From assembly GCA_031259905.1 (NCBI GenBank), contig JAIRKS010000058.1, forward strand, positions 1 through 27,297: 27,297 nt of DNA. Direction: 5' to 3'. Within the stretch, counting starts at the first letter, position 1, and each line of letters begins with the position of its first letter. The DNA comes from Odoribacteraceae bacterium. Lineage in GTDB: Bacteria > Bacteroidota > Bacteroidia > Bacteroidales > Marinifilaceae. Positions 4,753 to 22,811 of the stretch are shown here, in pieces. The notes below the pieces were generated by a model that was not told where the DNA came from, ran no database searches, and was given only the letters and a program-made list of their open reading frames with translations. Made by a program: the position numbers and the translations under genes.

Positions 4753-4794
4753 ACGCGTGAAGGAAGTTTTTTTACCGTGTAGAAGTAATAAGGT

Positions 4795-5721: not shown

Positions 5722-6104
5722 AAAAATTGAAGGGTGTTAATAAAGGCTTCCCCCGCCGCGGGAAACAGGGAAGGAAAGAGAGGCAGGAAACGCTGGACGA
5801 GGCACTGCGGGAGCTGATCGACGGGAAATTGCTCGGCGATAGGATTATCTGGAGGAACATGGGGCTGATCCTCTTCTTTACTTTCCTGATCATACTTTAT
5901 ATATATAACCGGAATCAGATCGAGGCTCGCTACCGGGCGCGTACCAGCCTGATACAGGAGGTGGAGAAGGCACGCTACGAGTCGCTCTCCGCTACCCTGG
6001 AATTGATGAAGATAAGCAGCCAGGCAGAGATCGTCCGCAGGATCGAACGGGAGGGACTGGGACTGGAAATAAGCAAAGAACCACCGGTAATCATCGAGAA
6101 ATGA
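5718..6104 (+). CDS. ftsL: FtsL-like cell division protein
   Basis: Single TM segment (ILFFTFLIILYIY) followed by a coiled coil, lying between rsmH and ftsI with an ATGA overlap. Confidence 0.8.
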   Translation: MKKLKGVNKGFPRRGKQGRKERQETLDEALRELIDGKLLGDRIIWRNMGLILFFTFLIILYIYNRNQIEARYRARTSLIQEVEKARYESLSATLELMKISSQAEIVRRIEREGLGLEISKEPPVIIEK

Positions 6105-6105
6105 C

Positions 6106-8226
6106 ATGCACGCGATGGAACAGGAAAACAAGTTGACCGCCCGCGTGGGATTTTTCTACGTGCTGGTGCTGGTGGTGGTGATCCCCCTCGTCATCGGCAA
6201 GATCCTGTACACCCAGGTGTGGGAGGGAGAGTACTGGAAACAACGAGGAATCACGGAGCTGGTGCAAGACAAGGAGGTGATGCCCGCGCGGGGGAACATC
6301 TGCGCGGAAGATGGCCGCCTGTTGTCCCTCTCGATACCCTCCTTCACGCTCTACTTCGACCCGCTCGCGAGCCAGGAGGAGCTTTTCAATGAGAAAGTCG
6401 ACAGCCTTTCACTGATGCTCTCCTCGCTCTTCAGGGATGCCTCCCCCGCGGCCTACCGGGAGAAAATATGGAACGCGCGGTACGGGGCCAGGCCGAACCG
6501 CTACCTGCGGATAGGATCTCGCGAGATAAACTACACCGAGTTTCTACGCGTGAAACAGTTCCCCCTGTTACGCGCCCCCAAGAAAAAGAATAAGAAGGAG
6601 AAAAAAAGTGCAAGTGGCCTGATCTCCACGCGACGGGAGAGCAGGAAATCCCCCTACGAACCGCTGGCCAAACGGACAATCGGGGCAGGATACCGGGACA
6701 ATGTCGGCCTGGAAGAAGCCTACGACGCGGATTTGAGGGGTATCCCCGGGATCAGCCGGGCGGAGATGCTCTCCGGTCTCTGGGTGCCGCGCGTGATCAA
6801 GGAGCCGGTGCACGGGTACGACGTGATCACCACGATAGACGTCGATTACCAGTACATCGTGCACGAGGCCCTGGAACGACAGTTGAAACGCTACAACGCG
6901 CGGGCAGGAGTGGCCGTGCTGATGGAGGTGAAGACGGGCGACGTCAAGGCCATCTCGAACCTGAGCCGGCAGGGGACAGGAGGAAATTACGCGGAGGCAT
7001 TGAATAGCGCCATCCGCAACGCGTTCGAGCCGGGATCTGTCTTCAAGGCCGCCACCATGATCGCCCTCCTCGAGGACGGTTACGTGCACCCCGACGACAC
7101 GGTCGACCTCGGGAACGGGGTCTATCACTTCCATGACGGGAGGCAGTTGAACGATGCCGCGCACGGGCACGTCGGGAAGGTGACGGTGCAACAGATGTTC
7201 GAGCAGTCGCTGAACGGGATCTCCACGCTCCTGTTCAAGCATTACGATAAACAACGAAAGCGATTCGTCGATCGGCTCTACGCCATGCAGCTGAACAAGA
7301 AGCTGGACGTGGAGATCACGGGGGAGGGCGTGCCGCTGATCCGTTACCCGACGGACAAGGAATGGTCGGGGAACACGTTGCCGTGGATGAGCATCGGTTA
7401 CGAGGTGATGTTGACGCCGATGCAAGTGCTCGCGTTCTACAACGCGCTGGCAAACGACGGGAAGCGAGTAAAGCCCCGCTTCGTCAAAGAAATACGCAAC
7501 GGGAAGGAAGTCGTGCGACGTGTCCCCGTGGAGGTGGTCAACCGCTCCATCTGTAGCCGGAAGACGCTCTCGTACCTGCGCGGCATGTTGGAAGGGGTGG
7601 TCGAGAACGGCACGGCGCGAAACCTGCGCGGCACCTCCTACGGGATCGCCGGCAAAACAGGCACGGCGCGGATAGCCGACGGCGCGCGAGGGTACGGGCA
7701 GAGAAAATACCTGGCCAGCTTCGTGGGGTATTTCCCGGCGCGCGAGCCGCTTTACTCCTGCATCGTGATGATAGAAGACCCGGTGCGGAGCGAGGGGTAC
7801 TACGGTAACGTGGTTTCCGGGAGCGTCTTCCGGGAAATATCGGACAAGGTGCACGCCCTGGCCTCCTCGAGGTACGGCGAGCCAACAGAGGAGGAGAGCG
7901 ATCACCTGCCGGTAAGCAAGAACGGCTATAAACCCGACCTGCTGACGCTCTACGACGCGTTGGACATTCGCGTGAAAGAGGAGGAGAAGAAAGCGGAATG
8001 GGTGTTGTCCTCCCGCGCGGATGGCGAAATCGTGTTGCGGCCGCGGGACGTGGATTTCTCCGTGGTGCCGAACGCGAGAGGGATGGGGCTGCGGGATGCC
8101 CTCTACGTGTTGGAAAATAGCGGGCTGAACGTGGGAGTGAGCGGCGCCGGCACGGTGATAAGACAAACGATAGAACCGGGCAGGAGAGTTTCCCGGGGAA
8201 GTTACATACATGTTGAATTGAGATAG
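6106..8226 (+). CDS. ftsI: Class B penicillin-binding protein (FtsI/PBP3) with C-terminal PASTA domain
   Basis: N-terminal TM, RGNICAEDGRLL, SxxK (EPGSVFK), SxN (QSLN), KTG (GKTGTA) and PASTA (VPNARGMGLRDA). The start could be 6115. Confidence 0.93.
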   Translation: MHAMEQENKLTARVGFFYVLVLVVVIPLVIGKILYTQVWEGEYWKQRGITELVQDKEVMPARGNICAEDGRLLSLSIPSFTLYFDPLASQEELFNEKVDSLSLMLSSLFRDASPAAYREKIWNARYGARPNRYLRIGSREINYTEFLRVKQFPLLRAPKKKNKKEKKSASGLISTRRESRKSPYEPLAKRTIGAGYRDNVGLEEAYDADLRGIPGISRAEMLSGLWVPRVIKEPVHGYDVITTIDVDYQYIVHEALERQLKRYNARAGVAVLMEVKTGDVKAISNLSRQGTGGNYAEALNSAIRNAFEPGSVFKAATMIALLEDGYVHPDDTVDLGNGVYHFHDGRQLNDAAHGHVGKVTVQQMFEQSLNGISTLLFKHYDKQRKRFVDRLYAMQLNKKLDVEITGEGVPLIRYPTDKEWSGNTLPWMSIGYEVMLTPMQVLAFYNALANDGKRVKPRFVKEIRNGKEVVRRVPVEVVNRSICSRKTLSYLRGMLEGVVENGTARNLRGTSYGIAGKTGTARIADGARGYGQRKYLASFVGYFPAREPLYSCIVMIEDPVRSEGYYGNVVSGSVFREISDKVHALASSRYGEPTEEESDHLPVSKNGYKPDLLTLYDALDIRVKEEEKKAEWVLSSRADGEIVLRPRDVDFSVVPNARGMGLRDALYVLENSGLNVGVSGAGTVIRQTIEPGRRVSRGSYIHVELR

Positions 8227-8229
8227 TTT

Positions 8230-9684
8230 ATGAGATTAAATGAATTATTACAGGGTGTGACTTGCGAGGTAATGCAAGGAGACGTGTGCACGGGGATCGA
8301 AGGCGTTCACTTCGACTCGCGCGAGATACGCGAGGGATACCTGTTCGTCGCGCGGCGCGGCGTCCGCGCGGACGGTCATGCATTTATCAACAAGGCGATT
8401 GCTGCCGGGGCGGTCGCCGTGCTGGTAGAGGAATTGCCGGCGGAGCTATTGCCCGGCGTGGTTTACGCGCGATGCGCGGACAGTTCCGCCGCGCTGGGCA
8501 TCGTGGCGGCAAACTTTTACGGGAACCCCTCGCGGGAGTTGAAGCTGGTGGGAGTCACCGGCACGAACGGTAAAACAACCACGGCAACCCTCCTGTACGA
8601 GCTGATGCTGTTGGCAGGACACCGGGCCGGCCTCCTCTCCACCGTTTGTAACTGCATCGACGGGGAGCGCTTCGAGACCACCTGCACCACGCCCGACGCG
8701 CTGGAGATAAACAAGCTGATGCGGGCGATGGTCGATTCCGGTTGCCGCTACTGCTTCATGGAGGTCAGCTCGCACGCGCTTGACCAGCGTCGGGTCAGCG
8801 GCCTGGCATTCGACGGGGCGATTTTCTCGAACATCACGCACGACCACCTCGATTACCACGGGACGTTCAAGGAGTACATCCAGGCGAAGAAAACCTTCTT
8901 CGATAACTTGCCGAAGGAAGCCTTCGCGCTGACCAACGCGGACGACAAGAACGGGGCGGTCATGCTGCAGAACTCGGCAGCGCGGAAGTATAGCTACGCT
9001 TGCAAGCGCGCGGCCGATTTCACGGGAAGGGCGATCGAGCGACACCTCGACGGGACGATGCTATCGTTGAACGGGCACAATGTATGGGTGCGGCTCGTGG
9101 GAGACTTCAATACTTACAACCTCCTGGCGGTCTACGCGGCGGCCCGCTTGTTGGACTTCCCGGACGAGGTGATACTGCCGGCGATGAGCCGCCTGAAGCC
9201 CGTTGACGGGCGCTTCGAGACGATGCTTTCGCGGGAAGGGGTGATGGCCATCGTGGACTACGCGCACACGCCCGACGCGCTGGAGAACGTGCTCTCTACC
9301 ATCGGGCGACTGAAAGGTGCCGGCAACCGGGTAATTACGGTGGTGGGGGCCGGTGGCGATCGCGACCGCTCGAAGCGCCCCGTGATGGCCGTTGCCGCTT
9401 GTCGTTACAGCGATCAGGTCGTCTTGACCTCCGACAACCCGCGCGGCGAGGAGCCGATGGCGATCATCGAGGAGATGTACGCCGGAGTCCCGCGAGAGAT
9501 GCAGGAACGGGTGACGAGGATCTGCAACCGCGAGGAGGCGATCCGCGCGGCCTTGACGCTGGCGAGAAGCGGCGACATCGTGCTGGTGGCCGGGAAAGGG
9601 CACGAAAACTACCAGGAGATCAAGGGCGTGAAGTACCCGTTCGATGACAAGAAAGTGATCCGAAACCTGTTTAATAAATCGTGA
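8230..9684 (+). CDS. murE: UDP-N-acetylmuramoyl-tripeptide synthetase MurE (meso-DAP type)
   Basis: GVTGTNGKTT, TTPD, MEVSSH, NITHDHLDYH, VDYAHTPDAL, the DNPR specificity motif and AGKGHENYQ. Confidence 0.97.
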   Translation: MRLNELLQGVTCEVMQGDVCTGIEGVHFDSREIREGYLFVARRGVRADGHAFINKAIAAGAVAVLVEELPAELLPGVVYARCADSSAALGIVAANFYGNPSRELKLVGVTGTNGKTTTATLLYELMLLAGHRAGLLSTVCNCIDGERFETTCTTPDALEINKLMRAMVDSGCRYCFMEVSSHALDQRRVSGLAFDGAIFSNITHDHLDYHGTFKEYIQAKKTFFDNLPKEAFALTNADDKNGAVMLQNSAARKYSYACKRAADFTGRAIERHLDGTMLSLNGHNVWVRLVGDFNTYNLLAVYAAARLLDFPDEVILPAMSRLKPVDGRFETMLSREGVMAIVDYAHTPDALENVLSTIGRLKGAGNRVITVVGAGGDRDRSKRPVMAVAACRYSDQVVLTSDNPRGEEPMAIIEEMYAGVPREMQERVTRICNREEAIRAALTLARSGDIVLVAGKGHENYQEIKGVKYPFDDKKVIRNLFNKS

Positions 9685-9687
9685 ACC

Positions 9688-10926
9688 ATGCTATACCACG
9701 CGTTTGAATACTTGCACGACCTGGGGGTTCCGGGATCCGGCATGTTCCAGTACATCACCTTCCGCTCGGCGGCGGCGGTCATCTTCTCCCTGTTGATTGC
9801 CACGGTCGTGGGGCGTCACATCATCCGTTTCCTGCGCCAGCAGCAGGTGGGGGAGGAGGTACGCGACCTCGGCCTGGAGGGGCAAGTGCAGAAGCAAGGC
9901 ACGCCGACTATGGGTGGGGTGATCATCCTCCTGGCCATCCTCGTGCCGGTGCTGCTGTTCGCCCGCCTTGACAACATCTACATCCAGTTGATGCTGATAG
10001 CCACGGTATGGTTGGGGCTGATCGGTTTCCTGGACGACTACATCAAGGTATTCAAGCGAGACAAGAAGGGCCTCAAAGGGCATTTCAAGATCATCGGGCA
10101 GGTGGGACTGGGCCTGATCGTCGGGCTTACCCTGTACACCAGTGACGACGTGGTCATTCGCGAGCGGGTCGTGCAGGAGAGCGAGGTCGTCAGCACGGAC
10201 GACGGCCTCCCGCGGACGGTGAAGCAGGTACTCGTGCAAGACGTGAAGTCGACCCGCACCACCATCCCCTTCTTCAAGAACAACCAGTTCGATTACGCCT
10301 GGTTCGGCGCTTTTGCCGGGAGACACGCCGAGAAGATCGGCTGGATCATCTTCATCATCATCACGATCCTGATCGTGACGGCCGTCTCGAACGGGGCAAA
10401 CCTGACCGACGGGCTGGACGGCCTGGCCACGGGCACGTCGGCCATCGCCGGCGTGACGCTCGGCATCCTTGCCTACGTGTCGGGGAACGTCGTCTACGCC
10501 GAATACCTGAACATCATGTACATCCCGCACTCCGGCGAGCTGGTCGTCTTCATTGCCGCCTTCACCGGGGCGACGATCGGCTTCCTGTGGTACAACTCCT
10601 ATCCCGCCCAGGTCTTCATGGGCGACACGGGGAGCCTCTCCCTGGGGGGAATCATCGCCGTCTTCGCGATCATCATCCACAAGGAACTGCTCATCCCGGT
10701 GCTGTGCGGGATTTTCCTCATGGAGAACCTCTCGGTGGTCATGCAAGTGAGCTACTTCAAGTACACCCGTCGGCGCTTTGGCACGGGGCGACGGATCTTC
10801 CTGATGGCCCCGTTGCACCATCACTTCCAGAAGCAGGGCTTACCGGAGGCGAAGATCGTGACGCGTTTCTGGATCGTGGGGATCGCGCTGGCGGTGCTCG
10901 CCATTGTCACCTTAAAAATACGCTAA
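9688..10926 (+). CDS. mraY: Phospho-N-acetylmuramoyl-pentapeptide transferase MraY
   Basis: [40 protein letters not shown] and APLHHHF, with multiple TM segments. Confidence 0.98.
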
Positions 10927-12285
10927 ATGATGAAGCTGGTTATTCTTGGAGGCGGGGAGAGCGGCATCGGCGCGGCGCGACTGGGATCGCGGTTGGGCCA
11001 CGCGGTATTCTTGTCGGACAGCGGGCCGCTGACCGGGGGCGCCCGCCACGCGCTGGAAGAGATGCAGGTGGAGTTCGAGGAGGGGGGGCACGACGCGAGG
11101 CGGGTCATGCAGGCGGACCTGGTCGTGAAAAGCCCTGGAATTCCCGACACCCTCCCGCTGGTCGTCTCCCTCCGGGCGGCGGGCGTGGAGGTGATCTCGG
11201 AAATAGAGTTCGCCGGTCGCCACACGGACGCGGCGATGTACTGCATCACGGGGAGTAACGGGAAAACCACCACCACCTTATTATTATACCACCTGCTCCG
11301 GCGCGGCGGACTGGACGTCGGCCTGGCGGGGAACGTCGGGCACAGCCTGGCCGCGCGCGTGGCGACAGACCCTCACGCGGCCTACGTGGTAGAGCTTTCC
11401 AGCTTCCAGCTGGACGGGATGTCCCGTTTCCATTGCGACACGGCCATCTTGACGAACATCACGCCGGACCACCTCGATCGCTACGGCGGGCGGTTCGAGA
11501 GATACGTCGACTCCAAGTTCCGGGTACTCCAGAACGCCCGCCCGCGCGATCTTTTCATCTACGGCACGGATTGCGACGCGGTACGCGAGCGGGTGTCCCG
11601 GACGCGGATCGTCCCCCGCGCGGCGCGCTTCACGTGTCACGACGATCCCGGCCAGGACGCGTGGATGTCGGGCGATCGCCTGCTGGCGCGTCACGAGGGT
11701 CGTCTCTTCTCGATCGACCGGCGGGAGATCTCGATACAGGGTCGCCACAACATGTACAACGCCCAGGCGGCCGTACTGGCGGCGATGAAGGCGGGCGTGG
11801 GGGACGACGACCTGCGGCGCGGCCTGGCGACCTTCCCCCCGGTGGAGCATCGCCTGGAGCGGGTGGCGGTCGTGAACGGCGTCACGTACATCAACGATTC
11901 GAAGGCGACCAACGTCGATTCCGCCCTGTACGCCCTGGAGAGCGTCCCCCCGCCGGTGATCTGGATCGCCGGGGGCACCGACAAGGGGAACGACTACGCG
12001 GCGTTGAAGGCGCTGGCGCGGGAAAAGGTAAAGCTGCTCGTCTGCATGGGAGTGGACAACGCCCGCCTGTCGCGCGAGTTTTCCGGCACGACCGAGGTCG
12101 TCGACACGCGCGGGCTGGACGAGGCGATGGCCGTCGTCGCGGCGCGCGTCGTGCCCGGGGACACGGTGCTCCTCTCCCCGTGCTGCGCGAGCTTCGACCT
12201 CTTCAGGAACTACGAGGATCGCGGGCGGCAATTCAAGGAAAAAGTAATGAATCTAACGCGACAGGATAATGGAAGAGATCATTAA
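10927..12285 (+). CDS. murD: UDP-N-acetylmuramoyl-L-alanine:D-glutamate ligase MurD
   Basis: LGGGESG, VKSPGI, ITGSNGKTTT, ELSSFQL, NITPDHLDRY, NDSKATN and LLSPCCASFDLF. Confidence 0.97.
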   Translation: MMKLVILGGGESGIGAARLGSRLGHAVFLSDSGPLTGGARHALEEMQVEFEEGGHDARRVMQADLVVKSPGIPDTLPLVVSLRAAGVEVISEIEFAGRHTDAAMYCITGSNGKTTTTLLLYHLLRRGGLDVGLAGNVGHSLAARVATDPHAAYVVELSSFQLDGMSRFHCDTAILTNITPDHLDRYGGRFERYVDSKFRVLQNARPRDLFIYGTDCDAVRERVSRTRIVPRAARFTCHDDPGQDAWMSGDRLLARHEGRLFSIDRREISIQGRHNMYNAQAAVLAAMKAGVGDDDLRRGLATFPPVEHRLERVAVVNGVTYINDSKATNVDSALYALESVPPPVIWIAGGTDKGNDYAALKALAREKVKLLVCMGVDNARLSREFSGTTEVVDTRGLDEAMAVVAARVVPGDTVLLSPCCASFDLFRNYEDRGRQFKEKVMNLTRQDNGRDH

Positions 12286-13951
12286 CCGGGCAAAATACTA
12301 CCTCGTCCCGAAGGGTGACAAGATCCTCTGGGTGATGATCCTCGCGTTGATGCTGATCTCGCTGGTCGCGGTCTTCTCGTCCACCGGGAAGCTCGCCTAC
12401 GTCAGCATGGAGGGGGACACGACGCGCCCGTTGTTCAAGCAAGCCGGGCTATTCGTCGCGGCCCTTGGCGTGATGCTCTTCGTTCAATCGATGCACTACA
12501 AGTACTTCATCTCGCTGGCCACGCCCGCGTGCTGGCTGGCGCTGCTGTTGCTGGCGTTGGCGCTCGTGATCTCGCTCCTCGACAATTCGGCGCGTGTCAA
12601 CGATACGGCCCGCTGGATAAAAATCCCCATCCTCGGCAGCATCCAGCCGTCGGAGGTTGCCAAGCTGGGGCTCGTGATGTACATGGCGCGGGTGCTCGCG
12701 TTCGAGCAACTGTCCGATCGCTGTTCCAACCGCGTGCTGTTCAAGATAGCGTTAATCTTCCTTCCCCCGTGGATACTGATCTTCAATGAAAACGCCTCGA
12801 CGTCCGTGCTCCTGGCGCTGGTCTGCGCGGTGATGCTATTCGTCGGGCGCTTGCACTGGAAACCGCTGCTGCTGACGTACGCCGTCGCCGCGGCGCTCGC
12901 CACTGTCTTCCTGGTGACGATCATGAACACCGACAAGCTCGACCACATCGCGCGCGTGGTCACCATCAAGGAGCGGTTGAACAACAAGAACCCCTTCCAG
13001 GCTAACCAGGCCAAGATTGCCATCGCGCGCGGCGGCCTCCACGGCGTCGGGCCGGGGCGCAGCGTGCAGCGGAATTTCCTGCCGAACCCGCAGTCGGATT
13101 ACATCTACGCGATCATCGTCGAGGAGTACGGGCTGCTCGTCGGCGGCATACCGGTGCTGCTCATCTACGCGATCATCCTGTACCGCGTCGGCACGATCGC
13201 CCGGCGATGCACGCGGGCGTTCCCGGCGCTACTCGTGACGGGGCTGGGGATCACGATTTTTCTCCAGGCGATCATACACGTGTGCGTGTGTACCGGCGTT
13301 TTCCCCGTGACCGGCCAGCCCTTGCCGCTGGTGAGCACCGGCGGCACGTCCATCCTCCTCCTCGGCGTCGCCTTCGGGATGATCCAAAGCGTCGCGCACA
13401 CCTTCTCGGACGCCGGGCAACAGGAGGAACGCGAACGACAGGCACGACGAAAAGCCGCCAGGAGAAGGGAAATCGAACGACTGGAACGAGAGGAGGACGA
13501 CGAAACGCTATATTTTCAGCGGCTTTCCCTGAATTTTGAGCGCCCTTTACAAACTTTGAAATGCCTTGTACAAAGTTTGAAATGCCCTTTACAAAGTTTG
13601 AAATGCCCTTTACAAAGTTTGAAATGCCTTGTACAAACTTTGAAATGCCTTGTTCAAATTTCTAGATGCCTTGTCAGAAATTTGAAATGCCCTTTACAAA
13701 GTTTGAAATGCCTTGTACAAACTTTGAAATGCCCTTTACAAACTTTGAAATGCCTTGTACAAACTTTGAAATGCCCCTGTACAAAGTTTGAAATGCCCTT
13801 TACAAAGTTTGAAATGCCTTGTACAAACTTTGAAATGCCCTGTACAAAGTGTGAAATGCCCTGTACAAAGTTTGAAATATCCCCCCGTGTCGCCCGTTTG
13901 GCGGCGCGTGAATGGCCGTGGCGCCTGACCCTTTTACCCTTTAACGCGTGA
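12269..13951 (+). CDS. ftsW: Peptidoglycan glycosyltransferase FtsW (SEDS family) with an in-frame repeat-derived C-terminal extension
   Basis: ARWIKIP, IQPSEVAK, FQANQAKIAIARGG, LPNPQSDYIYAII and GQPLPLVSTGGTS. The membrane core ends near 13400, but there is no in-frame stop until TGA at 13949-13951. Confidence 0.93.
   Translation: MEEIINRAKYYLVPKGDKILWVMILALMLISLVAVFSSTGKLAYVSMEGDTTRPLFKQAGLFVAALGVMLFVQSMHYKYFISLATPACWLALLLLALALVISLLDNSARVNDTARWIKIPILGSIQPSEVAKLGLVMYMARVLAFEQLSDRCSNRVLFKIALIFLPPWILIFNENASTSVLLALVCAVMLFVGRLHWKPLLLTYAVAAALATVFLVTIMNTDKLDHIARVVTIKERLNNKNPFQANQAKIAIARGGLHGVGPGRSVQRNFLPNPQSDYIYAIIVEEYGLLVGGIPVLLIYAIILYRVGTIARRCTRAFPALLVTGLGITIFLQAIIHVCVCTGVFPVTGQPLPLVSTGGTSILLLGVAFGMIQSVAHTFSDAGQQEERERQARRKAARRREIERLEREEDDETLYFQRLSLNFERPLQTLKCLVQSLKCPLQSLKCPLQSLKCLVQTLKCLVQISRCLVRNLKCPLQSLKCLVQTLKCPLQTLKCLVQTLKCPCTKFEMPFTKFEMPCTNFEMPCTKCEMPCTKFEISPRVARLAAREWPWRLTLLPFNA
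13534..13878. repeat. Array 2: 16 tandem 21-bp units, consensus TTTGAAATGCC(T/C)T(G/T)TACAAA(G/C)
   Basis: Units start at 13534 (degenerate), 13555, 13576 and so on to 13850, with a partial unit at 13871. The unit at 13765-13786 is 22 bp. Units contain TTGTACAA and CAAA-S-TTTG dyads. Confidence 0.97.
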
Positions 13952-13955
13952 AAAC

Positions 13956-15059
13956 ATGAAAAAGATAATCATCAGTGGCGGCGGTACCGGCGGGCACGTC
14001 TTCCCGGCCATCGCGATCGCCAACGCGCTGGAACGATCCGGGCAGGACGTGGAGATCCTGTTCGTCGGCGCGGAAGGACGACTGGAAATGGAGAAGGTCC
14101 CCGCGGCAGGTTACCGCGTGATCGGCCTGCCGGTGCGGGGTTTCCGTCGCCGGTTAACGTGGGAAAACGCGGCGGTCGTCGCGAGCCTCTACCGTAGCCT
14201 GCGCGCGGCGCGTCGCGTCGTGGACGACTTTCGCCCGGACGCGGTCGTGGGCGTCGGCGGGTACGCCAGCGGCCCGGTGGGCTGGGCGGCCACGCGGGCG
14301 GGCGTCCCCCTGGTGCTGCAAGAGCAGAACTCGCTCGCCGGCGTGACGAATCGCCTGCTGGCGCGCCGGGCGGCGAGGATCTGCGTGGCGTACGAGGGGA
14401 TGGAACGCTACTTCGGGAAAGAAAAAGTGATCCTCACCGGCAACCCCGTGCGCGAGGAATTGCCGCGGGCGATCCACGCGCGGGAAGAAGGCATCGCCTT
14501 CCACGGGCTGGACGCGCGACGGAAAACGGTGCTCGTCACCGGCGGAAGCCTCGGCGCCGCGAGCCTGAACCGGGCCGTGTCGAGGTGGCTGGAGCGATTC
14601 GCCGCGTGGGACGACGTGCAGGTGCTGTGGCAGTGCGGCAAGGGTTACAGCCAGGGGCTGGAACGGGCGTTGAGAGGGACGATCCCGCCGAACGTGATCC
14701 TGACGCCGTTCCTGGAACGCGTGGAGCTGGCGTACGCCTGTGCCGACGTCGTGGTGGCGCGGGCGGGCGCGTGCACGATCTCGGAGCTGACCCTGCTGGG
14801 AAAGGCCGCGGTGCTGGTGCCGTCGCCGAACGTCTCCGGGGACCACCAGACGAGGAACGCCCGCGCGCTGGTCGACAAGGGCGCCGCCATCCTGCTGGCC
14901 GACGGGGAAGTAGAGGCGCGGCTGGCCGACACGCTCGCCGCGCTGCTGGCCGATGACGGGAGACGACGCGACCTGTCGGAACGTGCCCGGGCGCTGGGAC
15001 GGCCGGACGCGAGCGAGCGGATCGCCGGGATAATTCTCTCCGTGACGAACAAAAATTGA
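13956..15059 (+). CDS. murG: N-acetylglucosaminyl transferase MurG
   Basis: IISGGGTGGHVFPA, VGVGGYASGP, LQEQNS, TGNPVR, GGSLGA, RAGACTISE and DHQTRNA. Confidence 0.98.
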   Translation: MKKIIISGGGTGGHVFPAIAIANALERSGQDVEILFVGAEGRLEMEKVPAAGYRVIGLPVRGFRRRLTWENAAVVASLYRSLRAARRVVDDFRPDAVVGVGGYASGPVGWAATRAGVPLVLQEQNSLAGVTNRLLARRAARICVAYEGMERYFGKEKVILTGNPVREELPRAIHAREEGIAFHGLDARRKTVLVTGGSLGAASLNRAVSRWLERFAAWDDVQVLWQCGKGYSQGLERALRGTIPPNVILTPFLERVELAYACADVVVARAGACTISELTLLGKAAVLVPSPNVSGDHQTRNARALVDKGAAILLADGEVEARLADTLAALLADDGRRRDLSERARALGRPDASERIAGIILSVTNKN

Positions 15060-15064
15060 ACACC

Positions 15065-16450
15065 ATGAATACTATCGAGGAAGAAAAAGAAAAAAGAGAG
15101 AACGACGAGCCGCGCCCGGTGTACCTCGTCGGTATCGGCGGCATCGGGATGAGCGCCCTCGCGCGTTACTTCCGGGCAACGGGATGCGCCGTGGCCGGGT
15201 ACGACAGGACGCCGTCGCCGCTGACGCTCGAAATGAGCCGGGAAGGTATCGACATTACCCACGAGGACGACGAGCGGGAAATCGCGGGGATCTTCCGCTC
15301 GCCCGGCCGACCGCTGGTGATCTACACGCCGGCGATCCCCCCCGGCAACCGCGTGCTCTCGTTCTTCAGGGAAAACGGGCACGCGCTCCACAAGCGCTCG
15401 GAAGTGCTCGGGATGATCGCCGGCACGAAAAAGGCCATCTGCGTGGCCGGCACGCACGGCAAGACGACCGTGTCGACGATGACCGCCTTCCTCTTGCACT
15501 CCTCGCGCGTGGGATGCAACGCGTTCCTGGGAGGAATATCCTCCAACTTCGGCACGAACGTGCTGGTAAACCCCGCCTCCCCGTTCGCGGTGATCGAGGC
15601 GGACGAGTACGACCGCTCCTTCCTCCACCTGCACCCGGAAATGGCCGTGATCACCTCCACGGACGCCGACCACCTCGACGTCTACGGCACGCGCGAGTGC
15701 ATGATGGAGGCCTTCGAGCAGTTCGCCTGCCAGACGAGAGGCAAGCTATTCGCGCGAAAAGGCGTGACGCTCCGCCGGCGGGAGGTGGACGGCTATTACG
15801 CCGTCGACGAGCCGGCGGATTATCGCGCCGCGCGCCCGCGCCCGGAGGGAAACGGCTTCCGCTTCGATTACGCCGGGCGGGACGTCTCGATCCCCGGCCT
15901 GCGGCTCGCCGTCCCCGGTCGCGTGAACGTGGAAAACGTCACGGCGGCGATCACCCTGGCCCTGCACGCTGGAGTCTCCCCCGGCGAGATCCGCGAGGCG
16001 TTGCCCCGCTTTAAAGGCGTCGCAAGACGATTCGACCTCCACGCGAACGGCCGCGCGATCTACGTCGATGATTACGCGCACCACCCGCGGGAGATCGAGG
16101 CGACGCTGACCTCCGCGCGGGAAATGTGGCCCGGTCGACGGCTCACGGTGGCCTTCCAGCCTCACCTGTACTCGAGGACGCGCGACTTCTACCCCGGCTT
16201 CGCGAAAAGCCTGAGCCTAGCCGACGAGGTGATCCTGATGGAGATCTACCCGGCGCGCGAGGAGCCTCTACCGGGAGTGACCTCCCGCCTGATCGCCGAC
16301 CGGCTGACCGTCCCGCACGTGATGGCAAGACGCGAGGAGCTGCCGGAACTCGTCCGGGCGAGGGTGACGGACGGTATATTCATGACCATCGGCGCCGGGG
16401 ACATCGACCGCTTCGTCCCCCTCTTCACGGCCATGTTCACCGGGAACTAA
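15065..16450 (+). CDS. murC: UDP-N-acetylmuramate:L-alanine ligase MurC
   Basis: VGIGGIGMSALA, AGTHGKTT, EADEYDRSFL, DADHLD, DDYAHHPREI, FQPHLYSRT and GAGDI. I prefer the ATG at 15065 over the TTG at 15056. Confidence 0.97.
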   Translation: MNTIEEEKEKRENDEPRPVYLVGIGGIGMSALARYFRATGCAVAGYDRTPSPLTLEMSREGIDITHEDDEREIAGIFRSPGRPLVIYTPAIPPGNRVLSFFRENGHALHKRSEVLGMIAGTKKAICVAGTHGKTTVSTMTAFLLHSSRVGCNAFLGGISSNFGTNVLVNPASPFAVIEADEYDRSFLHLHPEMAVITSTDADHLDVYGTRECMMEAFEQFACQTRGKLFARKGVTLRRREVDGYYAVDEPADYRAARPRPEGNGFRFDYAGRDVSIPGLRLAVPGRVNVENVTAAITLALHAGVSPGEIREALPRFKGVARRFDLHANGRAIYVDDYAHHPREIEATLTSAREMWPGRRLTVAFQPHLYSRTRDFYPGFAKSLSLADEVILMEIYPAREEPLPGVTSRLIADRLTVPHVMARREELPELVRARVTDGIFMTIGAGDIDRFVPLFTAMFTGN

Positions 16451-16462
16451 AGACCTCGCGAC

Positions 16463-17185
16463 ATGAAACACCTAACGCTCTACGTGGCAAGTATCCTCCT
16501 GTTTGCATACTTGATTATTATCCTTACCTTCGCGGCAACGAAATGGGGGGAGGTAACATGTGAGGGAGTACGGGTGACGGTCAATAACGCGCGTGACGCT
16601 TTCGTGGACGAGGAAGAGGTGTTGAAGATAATCCGGAAAGGATACGGGACAATTCTCGAGAAGAAGATGACAACCATTGACAAAGATAGCCTGGAAAGGA
16701 TACTTGTCAGGAATCCAATGATCCATTCAGCCCAGGTTTACTACAGTATAGACGGTAATCTCCACGTGAATATCAGGCAACGGGAGCCTCTCCTGAGAGT
16801 GATGGCAGGCGAGGGATATTACGTCGACAAGGACGGGGAAATCATGCCGCTATCTCCCAGGTTTACTTCCAGGGTTATTGTTGCCACGGGCAACATTAGC
16901 AAGACGTTCGCGCGCGAACGGCTGGCCCCGTTCGCGAAAAGCCTCGCGGGACACTCGTTCTGGAGCGCTTTCATCGAGCAGCTCGTGGTGCTCCCCGGTG
17001 GCAACGTGGTATTGATCCCCAAGGTGGGAGATTTCAAAATCACGTTAGGTCCGCTGGAGAATCACGAGGAACGAATGGAAAAGTTGATGATCTTCCTGAA
17101 ACGGGGAATAAGAAAAAAGGGCTGGGACAGGTACAAGGAGATTAAACTGGAATTTGACAAACTGGTAGTTTGCGTGAGAAGATAA
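16463..17185 (+). CDS. ftsQ: Cell division protein FtsQ/DivIB (Bacteroidota type)
   Basis: N-terminal TM, POTRA-like segment, IRQREPLLRV, YYVDKDGEIMPLS, terminal LVVCVRR, and position between murC and ftsA. Confidence 0.85.
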   Translation: MKHLTLYVASILLFAYLIIILTFAATKWGEVTCEGVRVTVNNARDAFVDEEEVLKIIRKGYGTILEKKMTTIDKDSLERILVRNPMIHSAQVYYSIDGNLHVNIRQREPLLRVMAGEGYYVDKDGEIMPLSPRFTSRVIVATGNISKTFARERLAPFAKSLAGHSFWSAFIEQLVVLPGGNVVLIPKVGDFKITLGPLENHEERMEKLMIFLKRGIRKKGWDRYKEIKLEFDKLVVCVRR

Positions 17186-17198
17186 AAAATTAAATCGA

Positions 17199-18347
17199 AT
17201 GGATTATATAGCTTCTTTGGACATGGGATCGGAAACGATGGTGATGGCGTTAGCAGAGGTTAACGCCGGCCGCGTTCGCGTGATCGCCGTGGAAATGGCC
17301 GGATCGAAAGGAATCGAGCGGGGAAAGGTGAAGGACGAGGAGCAGGCGAGCGCCGCGGTAGGGCAACTGCTGGAAGTGTTCCGGGAAAAACACGGGATGA
17401 ATATCGACAGTCTACGCGTCTCCTTGCCGGCGACGTGGTTGAAACGGACGACGGTGAAGGAGGTGTTGAATCCTTCCCGTGGCGTCAAGGAAGCCTACCT
17501 GGATGAATTGGAAAAGCGGTGCAGGATGTCGTTGCCCGATGACGGGCGAGAACCGGTAGCGACCCTACCGCTCTCCTACACGGTCGATGGCAAGGAGACG
17601 CGGCATTTGTTGAACCAGCCGGTGGAGGAGGGAAGCGCGTGCTACGTGCTGTACTCGGCCCGCGAGAGCGAGATGGAAAAGACCCGCGAGTGGTTGTCCG
17701 GTTTAGGAATAACGCGCGTGGATTTCTATGCCGGGATAGAGGCGATGAGCCGGGCGGTGGCCTCGAAACGAAACGGGTATCAAAACTTCGCGCTGGTCGA
17801 CCTGGGGGCTGACAGCACGAAAGTGCTCGTCTTCCAGGAAGGGGTAGTTGTCCGCGATGTCGAGTTGCCCCTGGGGTGCAGTGCCATCGACGGGGACATT
17901 CATACCGCCTTCTCGCAATCACTGGACGTCGCGCGTCAGTTAAAACACGAACACGGGAGTGCAGTGAGCGCGTTGGAGAAAAAAGACAGGAAGATTATCA
18001 TACCGAACACGCAGTATAGCGTGACCCTGCGCGCGCTGTTGCATATCGAACAGTGTCGCCTCGAGGAGTTGTTGGAAGGCGTTATATTTCAGGTGCAGAG
18101 TAGCGGCTTCTCTCGCGCGTTACCCGACGGGATACTGTTGACGGGAGGAGGAAGCCAGGTGAAAAACGTGGAAATATTACTGAATAAGCTTTCGGGATAC
18201 CAGGTGAGAAGGGCCGTGATCACGGGCGTGGAGGCGATGGACAGGTCGTGGCTGGAAAATCCCGGCTACTTGACCGCTTTCGGCTTGTTGGCCTGCGAGA
18301 GCAAGACGCGCAAGTCCCTGGGGAATTTATGGAAAAGGTGGTTTTAA
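17199..18347 (+). CDS. ftsA: Cell division protein FtsA (diverged)
   Basis: Actin-fold motifs LDMGSET, VDLGADST and ILLTGGGSQ, a C-terminal amphipathic helix (SLGNLWKRWF), and position before ftsZ. Confidence 0.85.
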   Translation: MDYIASLDMGSETMVMALAEVNAGRVRVIAVEMAGSKGIERGKVKDEEQASAAVGQLLEVFREKHGMNIDSLRVSLPATWLKRTTVKEVLNPSRGVKEAYLDELEKRCRMSLPDDGREPVATLPLSYTVDGKETRHLLNQPVEEGSACYVLYSARESEMEKTREWLSGLGITRVDFYAGIEAMSRAVASKRNGYQNFALVDLGADSTKVLVFQEGVVVRDVELPLGCSAIDGDIHTAFSQSLDVARQLKHEHGSAVSALEKKDRKIIIPNTQYSVTLRALLHIEQCRLEELLEGVIFQVQSSGFSRALPDGILLTGGGSQVKNVEILLNKLSGYQVRRAVITGVEAMDRSWLENPGYLTAFGLLACESKTRKSLGNLWKRWF

Positions 18348-18358
18348 AATAAATAATC

Positions 18359-19636
18359 ATGATCGATAGATTGATACATATAAACGCTCCCGTGCAGAAA
18401 GCGCCCGGCATTAAGGTATTGGGCGTGGGCGGGGGCGGTTGCAATGCCGTGAACTACATGTATTACCAGGGAATACAGAACGTGGACTTCATGGTATGTG
18501 ACACGGATTTACAAAAACTGCGTCAAAGCCCGGTGCAGAACCGGGTGCAGATCGGGAAAGACTCGACCGGGGGACTCGGGGCGGGAAGTAACCCGGAGCA
18601 AGGAAAGACGTCAGCCAACGAGACCCTCGACTACCTCCGTTCCGTGCTGGAGAACAATACTAAAATGCTCTTCATCGCGGCCGGGATGGGAGGAGGAACA
18701 GGCACGGGGGCTGCTCCCGTCATCGCCGATTTATCAAGGAGTTTAGGTATACTGACCGTCGCCATCGTGACGATTCCCTTCAATTTCGAGGGGAAACGGC
18801 GCGTGGAACAGGCGTTAAAGGGAATCGAGGAGCTGGATAAACACGTCGACTCCCTGTTGATCATCTGTAACGAGAAGTTACTGAAAATACACGACAACCT
18901 GAAATTGTCCCAGGCTTTCAAGAAAGCCGACGACGTGTTGGCGGTCGCCGCCAGGAGTATCGCGGAGATTATCACCATAAGAGGGTTTGTCAATATCGAC
19001 ATGAAAGACGTGAAGTCAGTGATGAACAATAGCGGGGTAGCCCTCATGGGTGCCGGTGACGCGTCCGGTCCGGATCGGGCAATGGAGGCGGTGAAAAAGG
19101 CCCTGGACTCCCCGCTGTTGAACAGTAGCGATATCCGGGGAGCTTCCGAGGTCTTGTTAAACATCTTGTACGGGGAAGAGGAAGTGACGCCCCAGGAGGG
19201 AGAATCAATAAAAGCCTACCTGAAAGAACTGGTAGGGGGCGACGTGGATTTTAACTGGGGATCGGGAAAGGACGATACGCTGGAAGATAAATTACGAGTG
19301 GTAGTGATCGTCACGAGATTTAAGCAGAGGGCCTTGGAATCACCCTATTCTGCCCCGGTCTTCAAGGTCGAGGAGGTCGAGGAGGAGGAAGAGCTGCGGC
19401 TGATGGTGGAGGATGCCCGACAGCTGGAAGAAAAGAAACGGCAGCAATATAAAACGAGACAAGAGCAACAGCAACGTAAGGAGCAAAAGGAAACACTTCC
19501 ACGCGAGAAACAGAAGCAAGGGAAAAACACCCCCCCCGACCAGGATGGTTGGCTCCAACGAACATTTGGACATATTTTTAACACAGACGCGAATCTGGCA
19601 AGAGACACGGATATATCAAAGGAATCTGGATCATGA
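18359..19636 (+). CDS. ftsZ: Cell division protein FtsZ, first copy
   Basis: IKVLGVGGGGCNAV, GLGAGSNP, GMGGGTGTGAAP, PFNFEGKRR and T7 loop NIDMKDV. Confidence 0.93.
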   Translation: MIDRLIHINAPVQKAPGIKVLGVGGGGCNAVNYMYYQGIQNVDFMVCDTDLQKLRQSPVQNRVQIGKDSTGGLGAGSNPEQGKTSANETLDYLRSVLENNTKMLFIAAGMGGGTGTGAAPVIADLSRSLGILTVAIVTIPFNFEGKRRVEQALKGIEELDKHVDSLLIICNEKLLKIHDNLKLSQAFKKADDVLAVAARSIAEIITIRGFVNIDMKDVKSVMNNSGVALMGAGDASGPDRAMEAVKKALDSPLLNSSDIRGASEVLLNILYGEEEVTPQEGESIKAYLKELVGGDVDFNWGSGKDDTLEDKLRVVVIVTRFKQRALESPYSAPVFKVEEVEEEEELRLMVEDARQLEEKKRQQYKTRQEQQQRKEQKETLPREKQKQGKNTPPDQDGWLQRTFGHIFNTDANLARDTDISKESGS

Positions 19637-20826
19637 AAGATAGATTGATTAATTTTATCCAAGACGAGACTTCCCCGGTCATCATTAAGGTGATTGGCGT
19701 GGGTGGAGGTGGCGGCAATGCCGTGGCGTACATGTCGGAAGAGGGGATACATGACGTGGATTTCGTGGCGTGTAACACGGATAGCCAGGCGCTCCAGGGA
19801 CTTCCTGATATTGTCAAATGCATACAACTGGGCCAGAGCTTGACGGGGGGAGAGGGCGCCGGCAACAATCCCGAAAGGGGCGAGGCCGCTGCTCTCGAGA
19901 GTTTAGAGGAAATAGAATCCATGTTGCGGGAGAATACCAAGATGGCTTTCATCACGGCGACGATGGGCGGGGGGACCGGGACAGGCGCCGCCCCCGTGAT
20001 CGCCAAGGCGGCCAAGGAGATGAATATCCTCACCGTGGGCGTGGTAACCTTCCCCATGCGCTCGGATGGCCCGAAGCGGGTCAAACAAGCACACGAGGGG
20101 ATCAAGCGGATGCAGGAGCACGTGGACGCGCTGCTCGTCATTGATAACGAGAAAATCTGTAGCTTGTACGGGTCGAGAACGCAGACCGACGCCTTTAACA
20201 AGGCCAACGACGTGTTAAAGGTCGCGGTGAAAGGCATCGCCGAGATCATCACCTTGCCGGGGTACATCAACGTGGATTTCTCCGACGTGAAGACGGTGCT
20301 GACCAATAGTCGCATGGCCATCATGGGAGCGGCCAAGGCATCGGGCAAGGGCCGGGCGGAACGGGTGATCGCGGAAGCGCTGAATAGCCCGCTGCTCAAT
20401 ATAAGCGACCTGTCGGATGCCAACGACATCTTGTTGAGCATCTCTTCGGGCATTGACGATAACGAGATTTCGGTACCCGAGTTGATAACGATCACCTCTT
20501 ACATGACTGACCGGGTGGGGGATGTTTCGGTAATCTGGGGTGTCGGTATGGACGAGACGTTGGGAGAAGATCTCTCCGTGACGATCATCGCCACGGGCTT
20601 CCCCTTCACGGAGGTGGACGACGCGCCGGTGAATATTCCCGGGATGGATTCCGGGACAGCACGGGAAGAGACGTACCAGAACAACGATAGCGTGATCGAT
20701 TACGCCGGCATGATATTGAAGAAACCGGACGTGTCCTTGCAACCTGATCTTACTGTCGAGGAAATACGCGAGTTGAAGATGACGCCGGCCTATACCCGGC
20801 GAAGAATAAAAGTGAATAAGATTTAG
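19633..20826 (+). CDS. ftsZ: Cell division protein FtsZ, second copy
   Basis: IKVIGVGGGGGNAV, CNTDSQAL, TMGGGTGTGAAP, T7 loop NVDFSDV and C-terminal PAYTRR. It has an ATGA overlap with copy 1. Confidence 0.93.
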   Translation: MKDRLINFIQDETSPVIIKVIGVGGGGGNAVAYMSEEGIHDVDFVACNTDSQALQGLPDIVKCIQLGQSLTGGEGAGNNPERGEAAALESLEEIESMLRENTKMAFITATMGGGTGTGAAPVIAKAAKEMNILTVGVVTFPMRSDGPKRVKQAHEGIKRMQEHVDALLVIDNEKICSLYGSRTQTDAFNKANDVLKVAVKGIAEIITLPGYINVDFSDVKTVLTNSRMAIMGAAKASGKGRAERVIAEALNSPLLNISDLSDANDILLSISSGIDDNEISVPELITITSYMTDRVGDVSVIWGVGMDETLGEDLSVTIIATGFPFTEVDDAPVNIPGMDSGTAREETYQNNDSVIDYAGMILKKPDVSLQPDLTVEEIRELKMTPAYTRRRIKVNKI

Positions 20827-20876: not shown

Positions 20877-22811
20877 ATGGAAAGATTTAGAGAATTAGGT
20901 TTAGACGGGGAGATTCTTCAAGGGATCGCGGATTTGGGCTTTGAAACACCGACTCCTGTACAAGAGAAGACAATTCCCGTGATTTTGGGCGAAACAAACG
21001 ACCTGGTCGTTCTGGCTCAAACGGGAACGGGAAAGACGGCCGCCTTCGGGCTACCGTTACTGCAAAAGATCGACGCGGGGAATAAAGACACCCAGGTGTT
21101 GATCTTAAGCCCCACGCGGGAATTGTGCGTGCAGATCGGGAATGATCTGAAGAATTACTCGAAGCACAGGAAAGACATCAGCGTCACCTGCGTGTACGGG
21201 GGCACCGATATCCGGAAACAGATACGGGAAGTACAACGCGGGGTACACATCATCGTGGCAACGCCGGGGCGGCTGGTTGATTTACTGGAACGCGGGGTAG
21301 TACACATCGGGACGATATTCGCCGTGGTGCTGGACGAGGCCGACGAGATGTTGAACATGGGTTTCCAGGAGGAATTAAATTCCATCCTCGAGGCCACGCC
21401 AAAAGAGAAAAACACCTACCTCTTCTCGGCAACAATGCCGAAAGAGGTGGAGAGAATCGCCAAAAACTACCTGGTGAACCCCGTGGAAATCGCCGTCGGG
21501 AAGAAAAACCAGGGGGCAGACACGGTCTCGCACCACTACTACATGGTGCGTGCCAAGGACTGTTACGAGACACTGCGCCGGGTCGTCGACTGTGCACCGG
21601 ACATGTACGCTATCATCTTTACCCGCACGAAGAATGACGCGAGCGATATTGCCAAGCATTTGCAGAAAGACGGTATCGACTGCGACGCCCTGCACGGCGA
21701 CCTGAGCCAGGCGCAACGGGACAACGTGATGGCCGCCTTCCGCTCCAAGCGCTTAAAAGTTCTCGTGGCCACCGACGTCGCGGCCAGGGGACTGGACGTG
21801 GATTGCCTGACGCACGTCATCAACTACAACCTGCCTGACGACGTGGAGAGCTATACCCACCGCAGTGGACGCACCGGACGCGCGGGGAAGGAAGGAATCT
21901 CCATCGCGATCATTCACTCCCGCGAGAAGGGCAAGTTACGCCGCATCGAGGGGATGTTGAAAAAACAATTCATCTACCAGGAAGTGCCCGATGGCGACAG
22001 TATCTGCCGGGCGCAGCTCGCCTTCTACGCCGACAAGATCTTGAACTCCGAGATGCAGGAAGAGTTGGAGCGCTATGACCAGGGGGTTTTCGAGAAATTC
22101 GAGGCATTGAGCAAGGAAGAATTAATACAGCATTTAGTCTCCTACGAGTTCGGTAAACTCTTGAAGAAATACAAGGACACGGAAGACCTGAACTTATCGG
22201 CCGGGGAACGGGGCGAGCGAGGTGAACGAGGAGAACGAGGTGAACGAGGCGGACGAGGTGAACGAGGCGGACGGGGAGAACGCGGCGATCGTGGTGATCG
22301 TGGTGATCGCGGCGAGCGAGGCGAACGCGGTGATCGTGGCGATCGTGGTGATCGTGGCGATCGCGGCGATCGTGGTGATCGCGGCAGGGAGATCTTCTTC
22401 AGTGCCTTCTCGATGAATGTCGGGCGAGAGGACGGGATGACCCCCCGCGACTTGATGGCCTTGATTAACCAGAATTCCCGTCACCGCAACGTGGAGGTGG
22501 GCGGCATACAGATATACGATACCGACACCCGCTTCGAGATCGACGAGAGTAGCGCTCATGATTTCTTCGTGGACTTCAAGCGGGTATTCTTTAACGGCAT
22601 ACCGGTGACGCTCGTTCCCTTCTCCGGTCGGGTCGAGAGCGGCGCTCGCGGCCGGGATCGCCGCGGTGGTCGCGCGCCTGCCTTCTCCAGCAGGTCCGGG
22701 TACGACCGCCGGGGCAGGTACAGCCGGCGGCGCGAGGAAGAAACCCCTGGGAAACGTCGCGGGAAACCGGGAAGCAACCCCAAAAAACCCAGGAACTTTA
22801 GCAGATCCTGA
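20877..22811 (+). CDS. DEAD-box RNA helicase with a DbpA/CsdA-type RNA-binding domain
   Basis: Q motif GFETPTPVQ, AQTGTGKT, DEAD, SAT, ARGLD and HRSGRTGRAG, followed by an RBD-like segment (MNVGREDGMTPRDL) and a basic tail. Confidence 0.95.
   Translation: MERFRELGLDGEILQGIADLGFETPTPVQEKTIPVILGETNDLVVLAQTGTGKTAAFGLPLLQKIDAGNKDTQVLILSPTRELCVQIGNDLKNYSKHRKDISVTCVYGGTDIRKQIREVQRGVHIIVATPGRLVDLLERGVVHIGTIFAVVLDEADEMLNMGFQEELNSILEATPKEKNTYLFSATMPKEVERIAKNYLVNPVEIAVGKKNQGADTVSHHYYMVRAKDCYETLRRVVDCAPDMYAIIFTRTKNDASDIAKHLQKDGIDCDALHGDLSQAQRDNVMAAFRSKRLKVLVATDVAARGLDVDCLTHVINYNLPDDVESYTHRSGRTGRAGKEGISIAIIHSREKGKLRRIEGMLKKQFIYQEVPDGDSICRAQLAFYADKILNSEMQEELERYDQGVFEKFEALSKEELIQHLVSYEFGKLLKKYKDTEDLNLSAGERGERGERGERGERGGRGERGGRGERGDRGDRGDRGERGERGDRGDRGDRGDRGDRGDRGREIFFSAFSMNVGREDGMTPRDLMALINQNSRHRNVEVGGIQIYDTDTRFEIDESSAHDFFVDFKRVFFNGIPVTLVPFSGRVESGARGRDRRGGRAPAFSSRSGYDRRGRYSRRREEETPGKRRGKPGSNPKKPRNFSRS
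22209..22388 (+). repeat. Coding 9-bp repeat: 20 consecutive RG-x tripeptides in the helicase
   Basis: Codon-by-codon reading from 22209: RGE x4, RGG, RGE, RGG, RGE, RGD x3, RGE x2, RGD x6, RGR. Confidence 0.95.

Follow-up and report, generated by a model that had tools for sequence, protein, structure and literature searches.

Two tandem ftsZ genes with differing C-terminal tails in the dcw operon of an Odoribacteraceae bacterium and its relatives

What use does a bacterium make of two complete ftsZ genes lying one behind the other? This question is raised by a 27,297-nucleotide stretch of DNA from an Odoribacteraceae bacterium (contig JAIRKS010000058.1 of assembly GCA_031259905.1), hereafter the window, in which the list of open reading frames (ORFs) and Pfam matches reveal a complete dcw cluster with two ftsZ genes at its end, here called copy A (upstream) and copy B (downstream). 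The two proteins have similar cores and differ in their C-terminal tails. The reading that we favour, with moderate confidence, is that of a two-FtsZ division system which would have arisen by ancient tandem duplication of ftsZ within the dcw operon, and in which copy A would anchor itself to the membrane and copy B would be tethered by FtsA.

Both genes encode genuine FtsZ proteins. Copies A and B score 358.7 and 319.1 bits, respectively, against the NCBIfam model TIGR00065 (FtsZ equivalog, curated cut-off 295.2 bits), both have the Pfam architecture of Tubulin (PF00091) followed by FtsZ_C (PF12327), and AlphaFold2 predicts a normal FtsZ fold for each, with mean predicted local distance difference test scores (pLDDT) of 79 for A and 76 for B, cores mostly above 90 and secondary-structure elements in the order of FtsZ. 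The GTP-binding signature GGGTGTG occupies residues 111-117 in copy A and 112-118 in copy B, the T7 loop reads N212-I-D214-M-K-D217 and N213-V-D215-F-S-D218, respectively, and both elements are invariant or nearly so among 31 A-type and 23 B-type orthologues. A first-pass annotation, made from the letters of the window alone, had described two complete and undisrupted FtsZ ORFs of 425 and 397 amino acids, with N-termini MIDRLI and MKDRLI and with GGGTGTG and an N-x-D-x-x-D T7 loop in each. All of this holds, and neither gene contains an internal stop. The core of copy A matches solved FtsZ structures with an E value of about 1e-80 (phmmer), a look-up in the ESM Atlas returned generic FtsZ clusters and nothing else, and orthologues of copy A in Gabonibacter, Sanguibacteroides, Odoribacter, Butyricimonas and Marinifilum carry the public annotation 'cell division protein FtsZ'. 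Since the GTPase and polymerisation cores are complete and conservative, each paralogue should still be able to polymerise.

The source assembly is a fragmented metagenome-assembled genome of 1.87 Mb (65% complete, 235 contigs), in which copies A and B are the only FtsZ matches. Its fragmentation invites the suspicion that the pair is an assembly artefact, or else a recent or neutral duplication or a decaying pseudogene. Such an explanation is already contradicted and we give it practically no credence. The copies are just 47% identical (over 309 residues), both are under purifying selection, as described below, and 97% of the sampled words of the window are present in one termite-gut metagenome, probably its source; the host is thus probably a termite-gut bacterium. 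Moreover, the same arrangement occurs in complete, single-contig genomes of the family, which, as delimited in the genome collection that we used, comprises both Odoribacteraceae and Marinifilaceae of NCBI.

Next, we examined the distribution of the pair. Two FtsZ matches were found in 74 of 76 near-complete genomes of the family (at least 90% complete, from 22 genera including Odoribacter, Butyricimonas, Gabonibacter and Marinifilum), both exceptions being fragmented assemblies, and two adjacent ftsZ genes in 23 of 24 relatives from the family. A survey of the order (300 genomes from 144 families) revealed a single copy in almost all families (about 130), tandem pairs in four others (f15, f19, f77 and f100; f, G, C and L numbers are our own handles for families, genomes, contigs and loci) and triples in two (f32 and f71), while two further families possess an unlinked, weaker extra copy. 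Outside the order, each of the 242 genomes sampled from the class contains a single ftsZ, the lone apparent exception resembling a split gene; two unpublished genomes among them (G411 and G487), also with one copy each, support no claim made here. In every genome examined the ftsZ pair sits in the dcw operon directly after ftsA.

A phenomenon distinct from the tandem copies was seen in L056 (G272 C62), L059 (G100 C1), G113 and G235. These contain unlinked and far more divergent FtsZ-like genes, which score 172-262 bits and thus stay under the FtsZ cut-off.

The duplication is old. In a maximum-likelihood tree of FtsZ cores (88 rows), all duplicated copies fall, together with 16 single-copy families, into one clade with support 100/99. 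Within the window's family, the A and B subtrees repeat the same subclades, so the duplication is older than the radiation of the family. Long-branch or duplicate rows were left out of the trees, namely both f15 copies (L043) and FtsZ of L079, L031, L057, L058, L019, L055 and L018, as were the unlinked FtsZ-like genes of L056 and L059, the nonsense-bearing L025 (see below) and near-duplicates. Pairwise ratios of nonsynonymous to synonymous substitution rates (dN/dS) in the window's genus, where dS is near saturation, are 0.11-0.24 for A and 0.15-0.29 for B; in other subclades they amount to 0.03-0.10 for both copies. Both copies are under purifying selection, and neither is neutral.

The first-pass annotation had proposed an old, retained duplication, to be checked by an FtsZ phylogeny and by dN/dS. 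Retention across the family, matching A and B subclades and ratios well under 1 in both copies bear it out. The pair indeed marks a whole family, though tandem ftsZ genes also exist in six other families of the order. What that annotation overlooked is the main contrast between the copies, which lies in their C-terminal tails. We have hardly any doubt that this is a retained functional duplication.

Differences between the cores are few. Where single-copy FtsZ is conserved, the A copies show just two fixed substitutions of their own (A85S and G200S) and the B copies none, and a search of core positions for an interface asymmetry of the alpha/beta-tubulin kind gave no sign of it.

The conserved C-terminal peptide of FtsZ, with the consensus [DE]-[IV]-P-x-[FY]-L-[RK], binds FtsA and other adaptors. 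Its counterpart in single-copy Bacteroidia FtsZ is an internal x-P-A-[YF]-x-[RK] motif within a long linker, and these proteins (L003-L014, L060-L099) terminate in a near-invariant N-[SP]-[FY]-L-H-D-N-V-D, a motif for which we know of no partner. In every tandem system, the last copy retains P-A-Y-x-R; copy B has it as TPAYTRRR, in which P385, A386 and R389 are invariant among 23 family orthologues. The terminal motif is kept by the last copy in five families and lost in the window's family and f15. Upstream copies, that is, copy A and both upstream ones in triples, have neither P-A-Y-x-R nor the terminal NSFLHDNVD motif, and copy A with all its orthologues lacks the adaptor-binding peptide that copy B has. 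The tails of upstream copies end in W-[FL]-x-x-[KR]-[FL]-x-x-x-F and a subsequent acidic end, typically [RK]-D-T-E-M. In the source genome, the tail of copy A reads DGWLQRTFGHIF...RDTDI and continues for another six residues. Across 31 orthologues from five families, W398 shows no variation and F407 almost none, and RDTDI corresponds to the terminal [RK]DTEM of the family as well as to the ...DExDTxM end of Bacteroidales FtsA. Judged by its sequence, copy A is FtsZ by core and not a canonical adaptor-binding FtsZ. It appears very probable that the anchoring functions have been split between the C-terminal tails of the two copies, which would thus be subfunctionalised.

As for the triples (L047-L050, families f32 and f71), the tails of both upstream copies are amphipathic and acidic like those of FtsA and belong to two different types; the last copy has P-A-Y-x-R plus a terminal N-x-F-L-H-D-x-V-D.

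In studied bacteria, the C-terminal amphipathic helix of FtsA is its membrane anchor. The extreme C-terminus of FtsA from single-copy relatives follows the pattern ...F-x-x-L-K-x-x-F-x-x-I-F-D-E-x-D-T-x-M. When 27 FtsA tails, all from single-copy genomes and without any FtsZ, were made into a profile, it matched the extreme C-termini of upstream FtsZ copies; the best E value was 2.5e-4 (14.4 bits), and 5 bits were exceeded by 11 copies. Among 2600 control sequences with shuffled tails, the highest score was 3.7 bits, and last-copy and single-copy FtsZ all remained at or below 3.6 bits. Reciprocally, a profile of copy A tails matches the extreme C-termini of FtsA with up to 13.3 bits, compared with 6.8 bits for shuffles. 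In copy A of the source genome, the segment WLQRTFGHIF has a hydrophobic moment of 0.58 (97th percentile of tail 10-mers), with W, L, F, I and F forming its hydrophobic face.

Since the tail of copy A is built on the plan of the membrane-targeting tail of Bacteroidales FtsA, we read copy A as a self-anchoring FtsZ, and its direct binding to the membrane seems to us slightly the better bet. Copy B, which keeps the ancestral P-A-Y-x-R, should be held at the membrane through FtsA. With an FtsA-docking tail on one copy and an FtsA-anchor-like tail on the other, the division ring would probably be built from two differently tethered FtsZ proteins. Copies A and B would probably occur in one ring, where they would either mix within filaments or form two populations of filaments, each with its own tether. 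The simplest origin of such a pair would be a duplication unit that included the 3´ end of ftsA and extended as far as the ftsZ linker; the FtsA tail would have become fused in frame to the first core, and the second ftsZ gene would have been left ancestral. This putative fusion fits the gene order, the tail-swapped copy being always upstream and the ancestral-tailed copy always last.

Several observations weigh against a self-anchoring copy A and its origin by a single ancient fusion. The FtsA profile does not detect the tails of copy A from the source genome and its genus, and these are tied to the others by orthologue alignment only (W398, F407). The median hydrophobic moment in the family is moderate (0.45, 88th percentile), AlphaFold2, whose models of both copies are of low confidence in the tails, places a helix at residues 398-403 with pLDDT below 50 only, and the acidic stretch following the helix is unusual for binding of anionic lipids, FtsA tails here having it too. 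The likeness of the tails could stem from convergence or from a common protein partner instead of descent. When the 3´ end of ftsA with the adjoining spacer was locally aligned to the 3´ end of copy A with its spacer in 35 loci, no nucleotide trace of an ftsA-3´/ftsZ fusion better than shuffles was found; two loci, both from one family, were marginal (ranks 1 and 4 of 200) and lost significance after multiple testing. The core phylogeny, a polytomy, is compatible with one ancient duplication or with several: approximately unbiased tests rejected neither a single clade of all W-F-tailed copies (p 0.256) nor a single clade of all A and B copies of the family (p 0.227). The FtsA tree is compatible with a single origin of tandem ftsZ in the seven families. 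Finally, in one family genome (G007, L025, contig C32, about 36213-37163; 99% complete) a TAA nonsense codon interrupts copy A near codon 35 (NAVNHM*KED), in a gene that is otherwise intact and well conserved, with dN/dS of 0.05 against a relative. Such a codon might reflect a knockout of recent date, an error in sequencing or a stop that is suppressed; if the sequence is correct, this strain may be able to do without copy A.

Some of these observations are shared by the main rival explanation, according to which both copies would reside in the ring and the tail of copy A would be a protein-docking peptide, recognised by a partner of FtsA tails, by FtsA or by another Z-ring protein of Bacteroidales; the paralogues would then differ in their adaptor. 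The canonical C-terminal peptide of FtsZ is itself short, hydrophobic and basic, and binds proteins. Moreover, the conserved acidic ...DTEM end, common to FtsA, is not needed for lipid binding, and the only moderate hydrophobic moment of many orthologues and the low-confidence AlphaFold2 helix point in the same direction. However, the motif is placed where FtsA has its membrane-targeting helix, with aromatic or aliphatic residues at i, i+1, i+5, i+8 and i+9 and basic ones in between, membrane binding by amphipathic tails of FtsZ has precedents, and no candidate partner is known. We consider a docking function of this tail unlikely.

The nonsense codon of G007 also bears on another possibility, namely that one paralogue has a role outside normal septation, in cell shape, in ring regulation or under particular conditions, comparable to the truncated FtsZ of Hyphomicrobiales or to archaeal CetZ. 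The two proteins would in that case not form a two-component ring polymer. Extra FtsZ copies which tune division and do not build the ring are known (PMC13732431), and the nonsense codon hints at dispensability of copy A. Yet neither protein is truncated, the T7 loops are intact and the cores highly conservative, both genes directly follow ftsA in the dcw operon in every genome examined, and both are kept throughout the family (in 74 of the 76 genomes), with dN/dS down to 0.03-0.10. A paralogue devoted to other tasks than septation is in our opinion quite improbable.

In the source genome, FtsA matches the Pfam FtsA model (PF14450) with 67.7 bits and its SHS2 (1C) domain was not detected. The same applies to the whole Odoribacter/Butyricimonas-type subclade to which the source genome belongs: PF14450 scores are 66-68 bits there, compared with 143-153 in other Bacteroidales, the protein measures about 385 amino acids, compared with 425-460 elsewhere, the SHS2 domain is weak or undetected, and the branch that carries the subclade in the FtsA tree measures 3.1 substitutions per site. 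The tail of the source-genome FtsA, KSLGNLWKRWF, is shortened and has no acidic end; its hydrophobic moment is 0.72. In the same subclade, the linker of copy B is short and the terminal motif of Bacteroidia FtsZ is lost. Diverged FtsA and altered copy B tail are consistent with a remodelled anchoring system, without proving one. One could go further and tentatively propose that copy A became a natural FtsZ with its own membrane-targeting sequence by in-frame capture of the ftsA 3´ end, in a walled diderm bacterium, and that the resulting redundancy freed both FtsA (about 50 residues lost, the branch of 3.1 substitutions, the weak or undetectable SHS2 domain) and the tail of copy B (terminal motif lost) in the Odoribacter/Butyricimonas-type subclade, where anchoring would now proceed mainly through copy A. 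We regard this whole chain of events as somewhat doubtful.

How do the two copies compare with known FtsZ systems? In its predicted design, copy A would be a natural counterpart of the engineered FtsZ-mts of Osawa and Erickson, reportedly an FtsZ core fused to a membrane-targeting sequence (mts), the MinD helix. Both have a core, a linker and an amphipathic membrane-targeting helix (predicted for copy A) replacing the adaptor peptide; FtsZ-mts is artificial and uses the MinD helix, whereas in copy A the fusion would be natural and would use an FtsA-type tail, and copy A exists alongside a normal FtsZ.

The plastid pair of plants and green algae (FtsZ1 and FtsZ2; FtsZA and FtsZB in red algae) is similar to the system proposed here in that, of two full-length paralogues in one ring, one has the adaptor peptide and the other has an amphipathic C-terminal motif in its place. 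The peptide of FtsZ2 binds ARC6, and the amphipathic motif of the other paralogue is reported to bind membranes. The plastid genes are, however, dispersed in the nucleus and not arranged in tandem in one operon, the adaptor here is FtsA, and the motif of copy A looks helical and FtsA-like, that of plastids being reported as a beta-strand. Neither copy is an orthologue of plastid or cyanobacterial paralogues, both lying inside the Bacteroidales FtsZ clade supported by 100/99. Since both are nested among Bacteroidales FtsZ, the duplication is independent of the plastid one and the likeness is functional, not by descent.

The C-terminal amphipathic helix of Mycoplasma genitalium FtsZ binds liposomes and the E. 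coli membrane (bioRxiv 10.1101/2023.08.29.555414). This type of FtsZ shares with copy A the absence of the canonical C-terminal peptide and the presence of a C-terminal amphipathic helix (predicted for copy A); it differs in being the single FtsZ of wall-less minimal genomes, with no copy bearing the docking peptide and no reported similarity to FtsA tails. In Odinarchaeota, FtsZ1 is tethered directly and FtsZ2 through SepF (PMC12583498). There, too, one paralogue is bound to the membrane by its own amphipathic helix and the other by its tail and an adaptor, as is predicted here, but the helix is N-terminal, the adaptor is SepF, the genes are not adjacent and the duplication dates to the base of Archaea. 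Retained ftsZ duplicates of bacteria include the truncated paralogues of Hyphomicrobiales (PMC13732431) and extra unlinked copies (Santana-Molina et al. 2023, PMC9871819). These known duplicates are truncated or lie outside the dcw cluster; the copies described here are both full-length, adjacent and in the canonical position. In the literature searched, we found no description of tandem ftsZ genes in Bacteroidales nor of an FtsA-like tail on FtsZ, and hence no earlier report of the pair for this family, a point that the first-pass annotation had wished to see checked.

The tethering of the Z-ring, and the possibility that FtsA has functions beyond that of an anchor, have long occupied research on bacterial division, which has so far approached them by means of artificial FtsZ-mts and minimal reconstitutions. 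If our reading is true, a natural pair, one member with an FtsA-like membrane tail and the other with the FtsA-docking peptide, would permit a direct test of the contribution of each tether. The pair is present in cultivable gut commensals (Odoribacter, Butyricimonas and Gabonibacter, the first two being genera of the human gut) and in marine isolates (Marinifilum). With it, the two-FtsZ rings of plastids and archaea would have a first counterpart in bacteria, and an operon-internal duplication would have been shown to create a new protein architecture. The matter is also of relevance to annotation, both genes being labelled simply 'cell division protein FtsZ' at present.

Concerning expression, the first-pass annotation had inferred translational coupling of the two genes from an ATGA overlap. 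The overlap is real and peculiar to the source genome; in 35 other tandem loci, the spacer between the ftsZ copies measures about 0-139 nucleotides. Translational coupling is consequently not a conserved property, the overlap being confined to one genome. Co-transcription of both copies is likely, and the single mRNA and two-component Z-ring that the first-pass annotation had also inferred are plausible. Among the data sets listed as containing the window, the termite-gut metagenome was the sole strong match and none was of RNA, which speaks neither for nor against expression. A scan for sigma-70 promoters and terminators gave no signal above shuffle expectation, with a consensus that is unsuited to Bacteroidota.

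Positions of the division module and its neighbours within the window
Feature	Position	Strand	Basis or remark
mraZ, rsmH, small ORF, ftsI, murE, mraY, murD, ftsW, murG, murC, putative ftsQ	4276..17185	+	ORF list; Pfam matches in these upstream dcw genes: MraZ, MraW, transpeptidase/PASTA, Mur ligases, MraY, FtsW
Putative ftsQ, 240 amino acids	16463-17185		Named by position only; no Pfam match at E 1e-5
ftsA, 382 amino acids, short and strongly diverged	17199..18347	+	Ends with amphipathic KSLGNLWKRWF
ftsZ copy A, 425 amino acids, paralogue without FtsA-docking peptide	18359..19636	+	In clade of family A copies
Copy A globular core, residues 17-321	18407..19321	+	GTP-binding motifs T1 and T4, T7 loop
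Copy A linker, residues 353-378, long helix (predicted) with many charged or polar residues (E/K/Q/R)	19415..19492	+	AlphaFold2 DSSP, pLDDT about 74-85
Copy A amphipathic tail motif D396-F407, DGWLQRTFGHIF	19544..19579	+	Orthologue and tail alignments
Copy A acidic near-terminal RDTDI	19601..19615	+	Six extra residues after it
ATGA, copy B start codon overlapping copy A stop codon	19633..19636	+	Seen in this genome only
ftsZ copy B, 397 amino acids, paralogue with conserved C-terminal peptide	19633..20826	+	In clade of family B copies
Copy B C-terminal peptide T384-R391, TPAYTRRR	20782..20805	+	Orthologue alignment
DEAD-box RNA helicase (DbpA-type) with GER/GDR repeat insert	20877..22811	+	Outside division module

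Two other genes of the window display unusual features. FtsW (12269-13951, 560 amino acids) has its FtsW/RodA domain within residues 19-378 only and continues in a C-terminal extension of ~180 residues. In the helicase located downstream of copy B (20877-22811), the run of GER/GDR triplets extends over residues about 446-501 and is scored by Pfam as a collagen repeat.

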